A stretch of 64,000 nt of DNA. It comes from a virus. Every line of letters starts with the position of its first letter. The first letter of the stretch is position 1. Location of the stretch: the UHGV virus genome UHGV-0293664; one strand, written 5' to 3'. The notes under the pieces are model-generated. The model was not told the origin of the DNA and searched no databases. It worked only from the letters and a program-made list of their open reading frames with translations. Of the stretch, positions 37,414-44,930 are shown piece after piece. The translations under genes and the position numbers were made by a program.

Positions 37414-37439
37414 CACAAAAACTAAGGAAGCACTAAACG

Positions 37440-37742
37440 ATGAAACGTTATAAACCATACACTTTTGAAATCGATTTCGAACTTGACGATATGTTTACTG
37501 TGGAGGCTCAGGCAGTTGTCCAGTTGCCAGACCCGGAGTGCCGTGATTCTGATGTTGACTATTACGGATTTAGACAAATTACCGATGTGCATGTTTACCA
37601 CAACGGTGAAGAGGTGGACTTCTACAAATTGCCAAACGATATGCGCCACTCAATTTACAAACGTGCAGCCCGTGAACTAGATTCCTATCTGGATGCAGCG
37701 ACGACAGCAGCTGCATTTGCCGAAGAAGTGGGAGGTTTCTGA
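37440..37742 (+). CDS. Small acidic protein
   Basis: 100 aa; Asp/Glu-rich. Confidence 0.5.
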   Translation: MKRYKPYTFEIDFELDDMFTVEAQAVVQLPDPECRDSDVDYYGFRQITDVHVYHNGEEVDFYKLPNDMRHSIYKRAARELDSYLDAATTAAAFAEEVGGF

Positions 37743-38149: not shown

Positions 38150-38632
38150 ATGTCAGATTTTATGTGGAAAGTAGGCTATGCCACTCCTGAAATGTGTGAG
38201 GCTTGCTTTGTGAAAATAGGCCGCGAGGATATCGACAAAGTGATCCTTAAGTTTCGTGATGTAGCTGTGATCGGCAACCGAGTGCTTAAGCACTTAAAGA
38301 ATCTGAAGCTAACCAAAAAGAAGTTCTTCGGACTTTTCGAAGAGAAAGTTGATGCTTGGACCCATTGCATTCAGGAAGCGAAATCTCACTACAGTGCTAT
38401 CGTTACTCCAGAACGGGTAGCTAAGATGGAAGGATTCATCAACAGCACAGAATTTGAGTGTCTGAAAGCTGCACTCGATAGTTATCCGAAATGCCTCAAG
38501 CACTTGGACAAGTATGTAGAAAAGGATGGGGAAATGTATCTCACCCTAGACGCATATTATGAGATGCAAGAAATTTTAAATTTAGATTTGACATTGGTAT
38601 CCACCGAGTATACAATAGGTATCCGGGTTTAA
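38150..38632 (+). CDS. Hypothetical protein
   Basis: 160 aa; AAGGAGAGAG RBS. Confidence 0.5.
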   Translation: MSDFMWKVGYATPEMCEACFVKIGREDIDKVILKFRDVAVIGNRVLKHLKNLKLTKKKFFGLFEEKVDAWTHCIQEAKSHYSAIVTPERVAKMEGFINSTEFECLKAALDSYPKCLKHLDKYVEKDGEMYLTLDAYYEMQEILNLDLTLVSTEYTIGIRV

Positions 38633-38637
38633 CACTA

Positions 38638-38666
38638 GGCCCTGCCCGAAAGGGTGGGGCTTTTTG
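38638..38666 (+). terminator. Rho-independent terminator
   Basis: CCCTGCCC-GAAA-GGGTGGGG hairpin then TTTTT; duplicated at 49350. Confidence 0.75.
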
Positions 38667-38683
38667 CATTAGGAGACAGCAAA

Positions 38684-39295
38684 TTGAAATTTATATACAA
38701 AGAACACTACCACAAAGGTGTTGTGTGGAGTCTATTTGACGGGTCTGGTGGTGCAGTCATTGACTGGGCAAAAGCTGGGTACCTGTGCCTGTGCTTTAAT
38801 GCAGAAGGTGCTGATCACGGCAGTTATGCAGAGGTGATCACCGATCATCCCAACATTCACTATGTTGATTATTGGATTGACCCATGGTTCCCTCAGGAAA
38901 CTTTTTGCATGTACCCAGCTCCAGACTTTATTCTTGCATTTCCTCCGTGCACGCATTTAGCGGTGTCAGGTGCTGCACATTTTAAGAAAAAGCTGGCTAA
39001 GGACCCCCTGATCCAAATTAATGCTGTAAAGGATGCTCGGGTTGCGGAAGAGCTGGGAGAGATTTACGATTGCCCGTGGCATGTAGAGAATCCTGTGGGT
39101 GTTATGTCCACACTGTGGCGCAAACCTGTCCCGCAAATAGTTGACGTGGTTAGCGGGTATTCCATGCAACACGCCAAGCTGGGTGGAAAGAGTGCAAGAA
39201 CGAAGATGATTCGAAGCCTCACACCACGTGGCTGGGCAAAAGCCGTATTCTTAGCAAACGAGCCTGTAGTAAGGAGCAGAATTAATGGGAAGTAA
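38684..39295 (+). CDS. Small C5-cytosine methyltransferase-like protein
   Basis: TTG start after AGGAGA; motif I LFDGSGG, motif IV-like FPPCT, motif VI-like HVENP; about 203 aa, no obvious target-recognition domain. Confidence 0.5.
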   Translation: MKFIYKEHYHKGVVWSLFDGSGGAVIDWAKAGYLCLCFNAEGADHGSYAEVITDHPNIHYVDYWIDPWFPQETFCMYPAPDFILAFPPCTHLAVSGAAHFKKKLAKDPLIQINAVKDARVAEELGEIYDCPWHVENPVGVMSTLWRKPVPQIVDVVSGYSMQHAKLGGKSARTKMIRSLTPRGWAKAVFLANEPVVRSRINGK

Positions 39296-41363
39296 ATTTA
39301 TGGCATCTGCATACAACCGTTTCGGCGAGCCAAACCCGAAAGCAACTAAGTATAAAAGTGGGGGAAGTGTGAAACGAGACTATCGTGATGAAAAAGAAGT
39401 TGAAACTGTAGAGACTGTTTTAGAAAATACTAAAATTGTCCCTGTCCCACAACAGAATATCGGTCTGATGGCTGCACAATATTTTGGTGTGCGATCAGCA
39501 TTGTCCCAAGAAGACGGTGTGACAGTCACTGCAACATATTTCCCATATTACGACCGCTACGGAAATCTGTCCGGTTTCAAAAAGCGTGACTGGACTATTC
39601 CTAAAGAGCAAAGGGGCCATTTCTCCGTTGTTGGCATCGTAAAGGCCAACTCCCAGATGTTTGGTCAAAAGCTGTGTGCATCTTCCAACAACCGTAAGCA
39701 GATCAACGTTTGTGAGGGAGAAGGTGATGTTATTGCAGCATGGCAGGCTGCATATCAGATACAAGTAAAAGGGATTCTCACCAATGCTAAAGCCCCGGCA
39801 AAGGTGAAGCAGTGGGCTAAAGAGGTCCAGGACGGGATCGATGCAGTTATCAACGGCGGTGATCTGGCAGGAAAACCCTGCCTGCCTTTTGTTGGAATTA
39901 ACTGTGGATGTGCAAACGCAGTAGATACTTTTGCAAACAATGAGAAGTTTATCCGTAGCTATGGAACAGTTGTGCTGGCAATGGATAACGATGCAGCTAA
40001 CGAGGTAGAGAAGCAAAAACACGTCATTAAAGGTGTTGAGGCCACGCACAATATCGCAGCATTTTTAATGGCTGATAACGTTTACCACGTAGAATACCCT
40101 GGTGAAGTAAACGACCCTGACGGTGTAAAAGATATCCGAGACATGCTGAAGGCTAAAAAGCTGGAAGATATTGTCAACATGTTCCGGCATCCTGTTAAAT
40201 ATGTGCCTGATGCTGTGTCGGATTTAGAAGACTTCTCTATCGAGTCTTTGCGGAAAAAGACTTCCAACGGGGTAGATATCAGTGCAGAGTTCCCAAAACT
40301 GCAAAAAATGCTAAAAGGCTTGCACAAAGGGACACTTGTAATGCTTACAGGTCCATCAGGCGGCGGTAAAACAACCGTGGCTAAAAAACTGGAACACTGT
40401 ATTGCAAGATACCTAATGGACCCGACATGCCAGAAGGCTGATGACTATGAAGAGGATGATCGTCTATGTATGATCCATCTTGAGGAGGACCCAGAGGAAG
40501 CAATTAACTCCTTGTATGCAAACCAGTTAGGGTTTGATGTTAAAGAGTTTGTTGAAGATCCTAGCCAGTTTTTAACTGATCAAGAACACGCAGAGATTCA
40601 CCAATCATGGGCAAAAGCTGGAAAAATCAAAGTGTTCAAACATTTCGGATCTATTCCGGTGGACGAGTTGATTACCAAGCTTAAGCAAATGGTTTGCCTG
40701 TACCATTGCCGTTATATTGTGCTGGATCACCTGTCCATGGTAATTTCAGGGCTTAATGTTAAGGATGAGCGAAAAGAACTGGACATGGCTATGACTCAGC
40801 TGGCTGCGTTTTGTAAGCAGTTTAACGTGTTTATCTTGGTGATCGCTCACCTCAAACGTACAGAGATTGTGCCTCCTAAGGACAAGGATGGTAACCCGTT
40901 ACCTTTCTGGTATCCTGTGCGAAAAGAGAATTTGCGAGGATCGGCGGGGCTTGAACAGTTGAGTTGGGTAGTCATAGGTGTCGAGGCCGAAGAAATGGTG
41001 GATCGTTCTCGTGGACGTGTCCGTCTGGTAGGTCTTAAAAACCGTCCAGCAAAAACTCTAGGTATTGCTGACACTTTGGTTATGGACCCGCACACAGGTA
41101 AGTTCCATGATGCCAGTAATTGGTACTGGGACAAAGAAATGCAAATGTTTACAGACGGAGAAGGTGGGGAGGTTGTTTGGAGACCTCAGGCTATGTTTGA
41201 GGATCAGGAGCATGCAGTTGTAGAAACACCTATGGGCAAGGTTGTGGCTGATAAGGTTGTAACTCCTACTGTTAAGTCTGTTGACACGCAGGAAGACCTC
41301 CAGTACGATGATCCATCCTCTGACCCGGTCCCCGGTTTTGAGGATGATGAAACGCCTTTTTAA
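39285..41363 (+). CDS. Primase-helicase (TOPRIM plus DnaB-like)
   Basis: CEGEGD and AMDNDAANE TOPRIM-like; Walker A GPSGGGKTT; acidic C-terminus EDDETPF. Confidence 0.75.
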   Translation: MGSKFMASAYNRFGEPNPKATKYKSGGSVKRDYRDEKEVETVETVLENTKIVPVPQQNIGLMAAQYFGVRSALSQEDGVTVTATYFPYYDRYGNLSGFKKRDWTIPKEQRGHFSVVGIVKANSQMFGQKLCASSNNRKQINVCEGEGDVIAAWQAAYQIQVKGILTNAKAPAKVKQWAKEVQDGIDAVINGGDLAGKPCLPFVGINCGCANAVDTFANNEKFIRSYGTVVLAMDNDAANEVEKQKHVIKGVEATHNIAAFLMADNVYHVEYPGEVNDPDGVKDIRDMLKAKKLEDIVNMFRHPVKYVPDAVSDLEDFSIESLRKKTSNGVDISAEFPKLQKMLKGLHKGTLVMLTGPSGGGKTTVAKKLEHCIARYLMDPTCQKADDYEEDDRLCMIHLEEDPEEAINSLYANQLGFDVKEFVEDPSQFLTDQEHAEIHQSWAKAGKIKVFKHFGSIPVDELITKLKQMVCLYHCRYIVLDHLSMVISGLNVKDERKELDMAMTQLAAFCKQFNVFILVIAHLKRTEIVPPKDKDGNPLPFWYPVRKENLRGSAGLEQLSWVVIGVEAEEMVDRSRGRVRLVGLKNRPAKTLGIADTLVMDPHTGKFHDASNWYWDKEMQMFTDGEGGEVVWRPQAMFEDQEHAVVETPMGKVVADKVVTPTVKSVDTQEDLQYDDPSSDPVPGFEDDETPF

Positions 41364-41421: not shown

Positions 41422-42156
41422 ATGAACGAGTTCAGAGATCACTGTGTAGCCAATCACTTGTGGTCAGAGATATTGGAGTATGACGGTCAAAATCTTTTTT
41501 GGAAGATAGACATTCTGGCAGGTAGCGGTGTAGGATATGTTAAAACTTCAGCAGGCTCTAGAGCTGACAAGGGGCAAGATGCTGATGGCAGGCCTGTGGT
41601 CAGTCTAGGAAAGCATTGCACTAAAGGTGCCCACGTCATAATTTGGGAAATGTTTAACGGTCCTGTACCGGAAGGGTATGAGGTTGACCACATCAAGGAG
41701 ATAAGAGAAACAGGTGGTGTGGCTGATAACAGTATTCAAAATTTGCAACTGCTCGAGCCTACAGATAACAAAAAGAAAAGTTGCAAGATACCTCGTAGTA
41801 ACAACAAGTCTGGTAGGGTCGGGGTGCACTATTCTGAAGAAAGAGAGGCATGGATAGCTCAAGGCACAGATTCTGCAGGTGAAAGAGTCTGGCTAGGCCA
41901 GTACAGAACTTTTGAAGAGGCAGAGTGGGCAAGAAAGTTCTTCGAAGATAATGGTTTTTCGCACAAGAGTGGAAGAGCCGTGCAGTATAATAACACCAGC
42001 GGTTGCTCAGGGGTGAATTGGGATAAAACCCATGAAAGATGGGTAGCCAGAATTTATGTAGATGGTAAAAGGAAATGCCTTGGGTATTTCAAGAACAGAG
42101 AAGATGCAATAGCTGCAAGAAAGAGTGCTGAGAAGAAACAGGAGGAGACAGTATGA
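41422..42156 (+). CDS. HNH homing endonuclease with AP2 DNA-binding domains
   Basis: EVDHIKEIRETGGVADNSIQNLQLL HNH motif; two AP2-like repeats; inserted between primase-helicase and polymerase. Confidence 0.7.
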   Translation: MNEFRDHCVANHLWSEILEYDGQNLFWKIDILAGSGVGYVKTSAGSRADKGQDADGRPVVSLGKHCTKGAHVIIWEMFNGPVPEGYEVDHIKEIRETGGVADNSIQNLQLLEPTDNKKKSCKIPRSNNKSGRVGVHYSEEREAWIAQGTDSAGERVWLGQYRTFEEAEWARKFFEDNGFSHKSGRAVQYNNTSGCSGVNWDKTHERWVARIYVDGKRKCLGYFKNREDAIAARKSAEKKQEETV

Positions 42157-44930
42157 GTAATTGGTGCTTCGACTTGGAGGCCTCCGGGCTTTTGGAAGAC
42201 CCAGATCTTTATTATCACTGCGGTCTGTTTAAAGAGCTGAATAAGAACCGTTTTATGCTGTTCCTTCCTCTAAATGACCGCACACACTACTCCGAGGAGG
42301 ATATAGAGAAGGCTAAGAACTTTATTCTGGCAAAGAAAACTCTTTATAAAGATTTTGAAGTTCGCATAGCAGATTTTTCGGAGTTGGAAGGTTGGCTTAC
42401 AGGCAATTCCGACTGGTCACCAACAGCTTTGAACTGCCATAACTGCTACAGTTATGACTTTATGCTAATGGAAAGATTGTCCGGTATTCATTTTGATATG
42501 TTCCGTGATCCTAAATGCATGGGGACTATCAACGACCACCAGGTTAACCTGTTTGATACGTTGGCGATGAGCCGAATCTTGTGGCCTGATCGCCCTTTAC
42601 CAAAAGGTTGTCCGGACTCTGTATTCAACCCGGTTACTAAGAAAATGCAGCCTGTTGGTCCTCACGGCCTTATGGCATGGGGCTACGCCCTTGGTAACCA
42701 GAAAGTTCAAATTGATGACTGGCGTGATCTTCCGTTGTGGAAGTATGTGGATCGTGTATTCGAGGACGTTATCATCCAAGAGCTGCTCTGGAAAGAGCTG
42801 GTAGCGGAATCAAAAGGTGTATTCTACGGCAAATCTGACATGCAGAACTTTATGTACGATCCTGCCAAAGAGAAGCCGAAAGGGTTCAAGAAGATCACCT
42901 GGAAGAACGCATTACGCCGAGGCATGCTGCAGCACTTCCTGATGGAGCTGCAGGCCCGTCAGGGTGTGTATTTCGACATAGATGGAGCTATTGCTTTACG
43001 TGACCGTTGCGATGCGTGGATGAAAGAGATCGCTGATCGTGTTGAACCTCAACTTCCTTTAAAAGAGTTGTCAATGTCTCAGCGGCCCAAGTTCCCTGAA
43101 AAGCCGTTTAACCAAGATGGGACAATCTCCAATAATGGTTGGAAATGGTTAAAAGATAAGCTTGGCTATCCTGTGGACATGAGCGCTTTAGAGTTCAAAG
43201 CCCCGCCTAAGCGAGCATTTACCTCCACAGGGGATGTCAGTAAGATGGGGATAAAGTGGTGTGAAGAGATGGGCTGCAAAGACCCAGATAAGATGGCTGA
43301 TTTCTTGAGAGGCTATATTAAGGGCACCTCCACACCACAACCTTTACCTAAAGAGCTAATGGATCAGGCAATAAGTGATCTACAGCAGAAGCGAATGCCG
43401 GACTGCAAGATACCTATGAAAATCAGCAATCAGGACGACATTAAGAGATACCTGATCAGTGCTGGTTGGCTTCCGACAATGTGGAGAACTAAGGATGTAA
43501 CTAAAGACAGCAAGAAGAAAGCTCTACCTGATGCAGATGTTGATGCACGAGTGTATGCATATATGGACGAGCTTTTAGAGTCAGAGTATTGTGACCTAAT
43601 TATCAACTTCTGGAACAAAACTGATGCTAAGTTCCAGACAACCGTGCACAAGTTCCGAAGCTTTCCTAACTCTGAAAGGATTAAAAAGGAAGTATTCGGG
43701 AAAATACGTAGAAAAGCTAGGACACTTATTACTTCTCCGCAGCTGAAAGATACGTTTGGACACCTATGCCCGAATCTTGAAAAATTGAACGGGGAGATGG
43801 CTAAAGATATCGTCTTGTGGTTATCATTGCGAAACCGCAGATCGGTCCTTGATCCAATCAAGGAGGATAAGGTTGATACTGGTCTTCTTAATCACCCACG
43901 TTTGAAGATTGACCATAAGCTTCCGGCTAAAAGCTCTGGATTAACAAACACTTCCAGACAGAAACACAGTATTTGTGCAAACATGCCTAAACCATCTCCT
44001 AAAGTGGTTATGGGTAAAGAGATGCGCAGTCTGTGGGGTGTTCCTCCAGGATACTTTGAGATCGGTATTGACGGGTCCAACTTAGAGCAGCTTATCGGGG
44101 CTTGGGGTGCCTTTGAGTTCGACAACGGCTTGTATTATGATGTTGTAAGTAACGGGGACGCACACCAAAACAATGCTGAGGCATATACAAAAGTAGCAGG
44201 CAGAGAGGTGTCTCGTAACGACGGTAAACCTATCACGTATGGGGTTATGTATGGGGCACAAAAAGACAAAGTTGCAGACATGCTGGATATCTCCCCAGAG
44301 TTGGGACAAAGGGTAATCGATGCACTTTGGGATGCCAACCCCGGTCTTAAGGGGCGTAAAGAAGATCTGGAGAAATTCTGGGAAGCAACGGGTAAGAAGT
44401 TTATCTACTCTTTTGATGGTCATGCTATCTGGACCCGATCTAAACACTCTTTACTTAATGCATACCAACAGAATGGTGGTGCATCGTTGTGTGACTTAGT
44501 TGGGATACTCATGCACCACCAAATGGTGAAGCGCGGGTGGTACGATGAAGGTGTTCGTCGTATTATTTATTACCATGACGAATATCAGCTTCAAGTCCCT
44601 GACACACCTAAGTATAAGACTGTGTACACCTTCGACACAATTGAAGAACTGGAAGCATTTAAGGCAGAGCAGGAGGCCAAACTTCATGTGTTCGACGGTC
44701 ATAAGTACAAAAAGGCACGCAAGGATGAGGACGGAAACGAAGTGGTTGACAGAGACGGAAACACGGTGTACGATCCTATCCTGAACGATGACGGAAAGCT
44801 TGAACTTATCTGGAGCCCTGTGGGTGAAATGGTGGTGCATTGCTTCTGGCAAGCTTCTAAAATGATGGGAGTCCCGTTCCAGATCACAGGTGAATACTTG
44901 TGCGGTCGTAATTGGGGTGATTGTCACTAA
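42153..44930 (+). CDS. Family A DNA polymerase with 3'-5' exonuclease domain
   Basis: Exo I FDLEASG; K...YGVMYG motif B-like; YYHDE motif C-like. Confidence 0.8.
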   Translation: MSNWCFDLEASGLLEDPDLYYHCGLFKELNKNRFMLFLPLNDRTHYSEEDIEKAKNFILAKKTLYKDFEVRIADFSELEGWLTGNSDWSPTALNCHNCYSYDFMLMERLSGIHFDMFRDPKCMGTINDHQVNLFDTLAMSRILWPDRPLPKGCPDSVFNPVTKKMQPVGPHGLMAWGYALGNQKVQIDDWRDLPLWKYVDRVFEDVIIQELLWKELVAESKGVFYGKSDMQNFMYDPAKEKPKGFKKITWKNALRRGMLQHFLMELQARQGVYFDIDGAIALRDRCDAWMKEIADRVEPQLPLKELSMSQRPKFPEKPFNQDGTISNNGWKWLKDKLGYPVDMSALEFKAPPKRAFTSTGDVSKMGIKWCEEMGCKDPDKMADFLRGYIKGTSTPQPLPKELMDQAISDLQQKRMPDCKIPMKISNQDDIKRYLISAGWLPTMWRTKDVTKDSKKKALPDADVDARVYAYMDELLESEYCDLIINFWNKTDAKFQTTVHKFRSFPNSERIKKEVFGKIRRKARTLITSPQLKDTFGHLCPNLEKLNGEMAKDIVLWLSLRNRRSVLDPIKEDKVDTGLLNHPRLKIDHKLPAKSSGLTNTSRQKHSICANMPKPSPKVVMGKEMRSLWGVPPGYFEIGIDGSNLEQLIGAWGAFEFDNGLYYDVVSNGDAHQNNAEAYTKVAGREVSRNDGKPITYGVMYGAQKDKVADMLDISPELGQRVIDALWDANPGLKGRKEDLEKFWEATGKKFIYSFDGHAIWTRSKHSLLNAYQQNGGASLCDLVGILMHHQMVKRGWYDEGVRRIIYYHDEYQLQVPDTPKYKTVYTFDTIEELEAFKAEQEAKLHVFDGHKYKKARKDEDGNEVVDRDGNTVYDPILNDDGKLELIWSPVGEMVVHCFWQASKMMGVPFQITGEYLCGRNWGDCH

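Follow-up and report, generated by a model that had tools for sequence, protein, structure and literature searches.

Genes and signals at the locus

The window, by which we mean the whole stretch of 64,000 nucleotides of the virus genome UHGV-0293664 that was analysed, comes, as judged by nucleotide comparison, from a Vequintavirus, an rV5-like phage of E. coli. The DNA of the region is 96-98% identical to that of E. coli Vequintavirus genomes (rV5-like myophages of about 136-140 kb), the window sequence itself being absent from the searched phage collection. Sixteen GenBank records that are labelled 'Campylobacter phage' (MG0656xx, namely H2, H8, H61-H63 and others) resemble this E. coli Vequintavirus window as well, with identity of up to 98% over 3.5 kb and ~96% over 24 kb, and the host label of these records looks doubtful.

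On the + strand, an open reading frame (ORF) of 203 codons runs from TTG 38684-38686 to TAA 39293-39295, in the following setting:

38637..38662, + strand: terminator-like hairpin with a T-run, ending the upstream gene; stem of 11 pairs, of which 7 are G-C
38671..38676, + strand: Shine-Dalgarno sequence AGGAGA, 7 nt 5' of the TTG start
38684..39295, + strand: CDS of 203 aa, internally deleted allele of a 'Dcm-like C5 cytosine methyltransferase' (phrog_757 match and alignment with the WalterGehring protein)
39285..41363, + strand: primase-helicase gene, with an 11-nt overlap that takes in the methyltransferase stop codon

The ORF as called mechanically starts at GTG 38654, a position inside the stem of the terminator hairpin, as had been pointed out in the preliminary description, where TTG 38684, following AGGAGA, was proposed as the actual start. 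The comparison with relatives supports this choice. The same hairpin precedes the ortholog both in phage WalterGehring, in which the annotated gene starts at the same TTG, and in L116. A relative that is ~80% identical over the aligned residues (L117) has GTG at the equivalent codon, with AGGAGG before it, and in the second diverged relative, L116, the same terminator is followed by ATG 10 codons further in.

The location just upstream of a primase-helicase gene was likewise recognized correctly. The primase-helicase ORF overlaps the methyltransferase stop codon, its ribosome-binding site (RBS), AAGGAG, is located within the 3' end of the methyltransferase gene, and its ortholog contains the AAA_25 and DnaB_C domains. 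In WalterGehring, the ortholog is flanked in the same manner, namely, by a gene for a 160-aa hypothetical protein and by the primase-helicase gene.

Upstream of the hairpin, within the 3' end of the ORF 38150-38632, there is a strong match to a sigma-70-like promoter (38588-38616; TTGACA, 17-nt spacer, TACAAT; 11/12); the distance to the hairpin is ~20 nt, so that a transcript initiated there would enter the hairpin directly. On the downstream side, an ORF that aligns to a WalterGehring 'putative homing endonuclease' (41422-42156) sits between the primase-helicase and polymerase genes. The DNA polymerase itself is a single uninterrupted ORF of 925 aa in the window (42153-44930), and the WalterGehring polymerase CDS consists of two joined pieces, with a homing-endonuclease gene within. 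Some relatives carry extra genes between the methyltransferase and the primase, one in L120 (L120:2256-2927, with HNH_3/AP2 matches) and two in L116 (L116:3747-4264, with DUF723 and T5orf172/MUG113 matches), so this junction may be an insertion hot spot.

A divergent and compact family of C5 DNA methyltransferases

The protein was initially perceived as C5-methyltransferase-like, and the HMM search that had been proposed as a check gave a divided answer. The window protein matches phrog_757 of the PHROG collection ('DNA methyltransferase') at E = 3.9e-64, in two stretches owing to a gap, and homologs of the ORF are found in 1,435 phage records, so the ORF is not a chance one. The phages that carry homologs include Vequintavirus, Drexlerviridae and many phages of Klebsiella, Salmonella, Cronobacter and Vibrio, and 1,583 homologs were recovered from a large protein collection at E <= 0.001. 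The name that the ortholog carries in the annotated BASEL phages is 'Dcm-like C5 cytosine methyltransferase'; the native Vequintavirus form is a protein of 254 aa, and the full-length members of the family span 225-258 aa. By contrast, PF00145 was not matched by the window protein even at E <= 10, nor by the full-length ortholog P0001 at E <= 0.01, and was reached at the latter threshold by 28 of the 118 family members (best, 1.3e-6). Sequence searches of Pfam, NCBIfam and PDB with the window protein produced only a sub-threshold SCO4226-like match and motif I of M.HaeIII (E = 0.43), and the family profile found nothing among the PDB sequences, that is, no sequence relative with a solved structure.

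The AlphaFold model of P0001, the full-length protein from Vequintavirus (pLDDT 92, pTM 0.91), has its best solved matches in the methyltransferase domains of DNMT3A and DNMT3B (Foldseek probability 1.0, E ~1e-6, TM ~0.5). Given that PF00145 is reached by some of the members and that the structural matches are DNMT3A/3B, the family represents a branch of the C5 DNA methyltransferases that is divergent and very compact, and the lineage originally suggested for the ORF is borne out by these matches together with phrog_757.

The conserved elements that are retained in the window protein are as follows:

38732..38752, + strand: motif I, LFDGSGG (aa 17-23), the SAM-binding glycine loop after strand beta1
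38939..38953, + strand: motif IV variant FPPCT (aa 86-90) with the catalytic Cys89, which corresponds to C82 of K42 Dcm
39080..39094, + strand: motif VI variant HVENP (aa 133-137) with Glu135, which corresponds to E128 of K42 Dcm
39182..39247, + strand: C-terminal conserved block GGKSARTKMIRSLTPRGWAKAV, in which G, G, I, R, S and R are invariant

The first three of these had been assigned the same motif roles from the window sequence, and the comparison with the family upholds the assignment. In the alignment of 118 members, F18, D19, G20, S21 and G22 are nearly invariant, and P87, P88, C89 and T90, as well as E135, N136 and P137, are invariant; all the family motifs (FDGSG, 18-22; PPCT, 87-90; ENP, 135-137; GGK..TK.IRSL.PRG, 167-183) are present in the window protein. 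The replacement of Gln by Thr in motif IV is real but is not a peculiarity of this protein, PPCT being invariant across the 118 members. The GGKSARTKMIRSLTPRGWAKAV block probably represents the short DNA-recognition segment of the family together with the equivalents of motifs IX and X. That there is no room for a normal target-recognition domain also holds, and for the intact enzyme: the full-length model has only ~40 residues (190-232) between strand beta7 and the last helices, with no sizeable target-recognition domain.

A 153-bp in-frame deletion between short direct repeats

When the window protein was aligned with the 254-aa WalterGehring protein, the two were found to be 99% identical over the aligned residues, with 51 consecutive residues missing from the former. 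The missing DNA amounts to 153 bp (51 codons, codons about 149-199), and the site of the loss is readily located:

39122..39128, + strand: deletion junction, where AAACCTG is left as a single copy; relatives have the repeat twice, with 153 bp in between

The relatives read GCGC-AAACCTG-ATTACC at one boundary and CCACA-AAACCTG-TCCCGC at the other, the window keeps a single AAACCTG, and the two BLAST segments overlap exactly at 39122-39128. Since none of the 118 aligned family members is without the segment, it is the deletion that is derived. The converse possibility, an insertion of the segment in the relatives (a mobile element or an intein), was rejected in view of this conservation across unrelated phages and of the core strands that the segment contains. 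The small size of the 203-aa protein, which the preliminary description had taken at face value, is thus largely due to the in-frame deletion of 51 core residues from a native 254-aa protein.

A query that spans the junction matches 112 phage records, and the best 60 of these are all split, with the two pieces 153 bp apart. A degenerate pattern of the junction was absent from IMG/VR, where the control pattern, the undeleted left boundary, did find Vequintavirus contigs. In the metagenome and genome collections, the degenerate pattern hit 14 and 47 loci, none of them related to the gene by BLAST; these loci, mostly from Micromonospora, were rejected as true copies of the junction and dismissed as chance matches. 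That the junction occurs in no other record of these sets (the best 60 of the 112 phage records, IMG/VR, and the metagenome and genome collections) is what would be expected if it were an artefact of assembly or sequencing, or a minority variant of the stock, in a phage that actually possesses the 254-aa gene. Nevertheless, we find this explanation very unlikely. The deletion is precise, with exactly 51 codons removed between 7-bp direct repeats, and so resembles real slippage rather than an assembler error. Moreover, a public collection of proteins contains a sequence identical to the 203-aa one, for which both NCBI and Logan are given as sources and which is placed on a contig of 138,142 nt, so the deletion allele exists in deposited data.

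The deletion removes conserved core residues

The lost block, PDYRFHPSDYGGYLPEDDVNPWFPEFIAPRDAYPKITCGWIGNGFIIPATK, contains the family's longest stretch of positions that are invariant or nearly so (PD..FHP.EYGGYLP..D.HP.FPE.I..RDAYPKKTC.W.GNGF..P), and none of the 51 deleted residues remains in the window protein. In particular, the invariant K182 of the full-length protein, which corresponds to K175 of K42, falls within the deletion. In the full-length model, the deleted part forms a strand (150-152), a helix (154-160) and a second strand (184-189), with pLDDT of 95-98. By strand order, the two deleted strands would be beta6 and beta7 of the class I methyltransferase sheet, and the second one, with the KxTC signature, would stand at the canonical place of motif VIII, a placement suggested by the C5-methyltransferase architecture and not by a residue-level alignment. 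The window protein is missing this motif VIII region as well as a sizeable target-recognition domain.

In the model of the window protein, most of residues 1-90 have pLDDT of 85-94 and residues 141-180, after the junction, have pLDDT of 43-58; this confidence is no measure of protein stability, and the model was built from an alignment of 23 rows compared with 118 for the full-length protein. Structure prediction, another of the checks suggested at the outset, accordingly supports the C5-methyltransferase fold for the full-length ortholog, with DNMT3A/3B as the best matches, whereas only the N-terminal half of the window protein aligns: its model matches DNMT3A over ~150 N-terminal columns, no better than it matches unrelated Rossmann-fold epimerases.

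These observations bear on the idea, raised in the preliminary description, of a naturally minimal, functional C5 methyltransferase that modifies DNA or RNA and dispenses with the target-recognition domain. Indeed, the protein has motifs I, IV and VI as well as the conserved C-terminal block, all undamaged and in frame, and the family as a whole is truly compact (225-258 aa). However, the form of 203 aa is confined to one genome, the 51 residues being present in all 118 homologs and in the best 60 of the 112 relatives, the lost residues comprise two core strands and the invariant lysine, and the confidence of the model drops after the junction. We therefore view a minimal functional enzyme as extremely improbable, and a disabled allele as the better reading given the loss of 51 core residues.

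Specifically, we consider it likely that the ORF is an allele of a known phage C5 cytosine methyltransferase that carries an internal deletion and has probably lost its activity. By analogy with the family and with standard C5-methyltransferase chemistry, the intact 254-aa enzyme would bind SAM via motif I, Cys89 of PPCT would attack C6 of the flipped-out cytosine with the assistance of Glu135 of ENP, and a two-strand hairpin bearing the invariant lysine would close the active site. Slippage or recombination between the two AAACCTG repeats would then have removed residues about 149-199, and with them strands beta6 and beta7, the intervening helix and the lysine. The remaining protein would retain its SAM-binding half together with both catalytic residues, Cys and Glu, yet be unable to complete the seven-stranded methyltransferase sheet, so the 203-aa product is most likely catalytically dead, with the qualification that a residual or altered activity is conceivable, given that these two residues, the SAM loop and the C-terminal block are all kept in frame.

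Survival of the reading frame and other disrupted alleles

By chance, one deletion in three is in frame. The survival of the frame in the disabled allele could be due to such chance or, alternatively, to a requirement that ribosomes arrive at the start of the essential primase-helicase gene, which overlaps the ORF. Conceivably, catalysis has been lost and a non-catalytic use, such as binding of SAM or DNA, has been kept, or else the frame is held only for ribosomes that proceed to the primase-helicase start. Such a retained role would agree with the in-frame nature of the deletion and with the N-terminal SAM-binding half, most of which (residues 1-90) is modelled with the high confidence given above; translational coupling, in addition, would agree with the position of the RBS and start codon of the primase-helicase, both of which lie within the 3'-terminal part of the ORF (overlap of 11 nt). 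Nonetheless, we deem this explanation quite unlikely: the one-in-three expectation accounts for the frame, the short form shows no sign of being conserved among the best 60 of the 112 records or in the protein collection, and frameshifted alleles of the gene occur upstream of an intact primase gene, so the reading frame is not obligatory.

The frameshifted alleles, which come from other public assemblies and are independent of each other, affect the same Vequintavirus gene. One is a -1 frameshift (A in GTAAAGG) that is found in three sequencing runs (L122:1501-1902, L123, L124), and the other is a +1 frameshift (A in AAGAAAAAG) found in one run (L120:1501-2263); the primase gene that follows is intact. 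The two alleles fit recurrent loss of the gene, with sequencing error in short homopolymers as an alternative. The picture is that of a gene that phages can do without and sometimes lose, the allele in the window being one more natural example.

A second methyltransferase gene differs between the window and its relatives. At the junction 37435-37443, WalterGehring and most of the relatives have a 1.33-kb gene for a 'putative N6 adenine methyltransferase' (L001:1103-2435), and tblastn detected no copy of it anywhere in the window. We considered and rejected the possibility that this is a second private lesion: the same gene-less junction is common to ~30 of the 117 Vequintavirus records, so the absence of the adenine methyltransferase is an ordinary presence/absence polymorphism. 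The replication module of the window phage is without any intact DNA methyltransferase gene.

Comparison with known systems

The closest known counterpart of the ORF is the Vequintavirus 'Dcm-like C5 cytosine methyltransferase' (bas51_0074 / QXV85584.1 of WalterGehring; cluster P0001, with 332 member sequences), with which it shares the position, the terminator, the RBS and the TTG start, and from which it differs by the loss of codons about 149-199 (153 bp).

The characterized member of the family is the Dcm of K42, a KarlJaspers-like phage of the Drexlerviridae with a dcm gene of 711 bp (10.1101/2023.08.16.553469). K42 Dcm is the trigger of retron Ec86 (10.1101/2023.08.16.553469; cited in PMC12916289 as Wang et al., Cell Rep 2024) and, as determined by LC-MS, raises 5-methylcytosine (5mC) on the retron Ec86 msDNA; the quadruple mutant C82A/E128A/K175A/K176A is inactive, the four residues having been changed together, so that the individual need for the lysine is not separable (10.1101/2023.08.16.553469). 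All four retron escaper phages had lesions in or near dcm, which consisted of a deletion of 2.2 kb, a frameshift of 1 bp and two point mutations located upstream, and the gene has thus been shown to be dispensable for the phage (10.1101/2023.08.16.553469). The KarlJaspers ortholog is also 711 bp long (236 aa) and has C, E, K and K at exactly the positions mutated in K42. This ortholog and the full-length Vequintavirus protein share 54% identity (E = 1e-86), along with the PPCT, ENP and C-terminal blocks. The K42/KarlJaspers Dcm is from another phage family, and among the members of the methyltransferase family it is only for K42 that 5mC activity has been demonstrated. C82 and E128 of K42 Dcm are kept in the window protein, as C89 and E135, whereas the K175/K176 region is missing.

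The dispensability and occasional loss of the gene fit the demonstrated role of the family as a trigger of retron Ec86. The loss could be neutral, the gene being dispensable, or could have been selected because host defences sense 5mC, with retron Ec86 as a demonstrated example and type IV restriction as a plausible one. In a more specific version of the latter scenario, which we regard as possible but rather unlikely, the deletion is an adaptive escape allele that has shed the 5mC-making catalytic hairpin under pressure from defences of the retron Ec86 or McrBC type while keeping a useful, translated N-terminal SAM-binding half, which might serve translational coupling with the primase-helicase or sequestration of SAM. 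Should this be the case, natural populations of Vequintavirus would carry recurrent trigger-loss alleles, and the two frameshift alleles would fit. CCWGG, the assumed Dcm-type site, occurs 128 times in the whole window, compared with 113 +/- 10 expected from shuffles, that is, no avoidance that could serve as a clue to specificity is seen; a search of the literature on Vequintavirus methylation and 5mC found nothing relevant.

The canonical C5 DNA methyltransferases (PF00145: M.HhaI, M.HaeIII, E. coli Dcm and the catalytic domain of DNMT3A/3B) share their fold with the full-length ortholog model, and the phage family possesses their motif I, catalytic Pro-Cys and Glu-Asn motif. The family differs from the canonical enzymes in having PCT in place of PCQ and ENP in place of ENV, a KxTC strand at the presumed place of motif VIII (QxRxR), and only ~40 residues where the target-recognition domain would be.

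By descent, the gene is a member of this known family of Dcm-like phage methyltransferases rather than a new kind of enzyme, so the novelty implied by the description of a miniature enzyme does not survive: the designation 'Dcm-like C5 cytosine methyltransferase' is already in use for the family, of which one member has been characterized (10.1101/2023.08.16.553469). The window allele fails one defining feature of the family, the conserved beta6-beta7 block, which is deleted. The appropriate label for it in annotation is that of a Dcm-like C5 cytosine methyltransferase allele with an internal deletion, probably non-functional, and not that of a novel minimal enzyme. Independent of the fate of this allele, the intact family is of interest in its own right, as C5 DNA methyltransferases of ~230-250 aa with almost no recognition domain, which raises the question of how such an enzyme reads its site.
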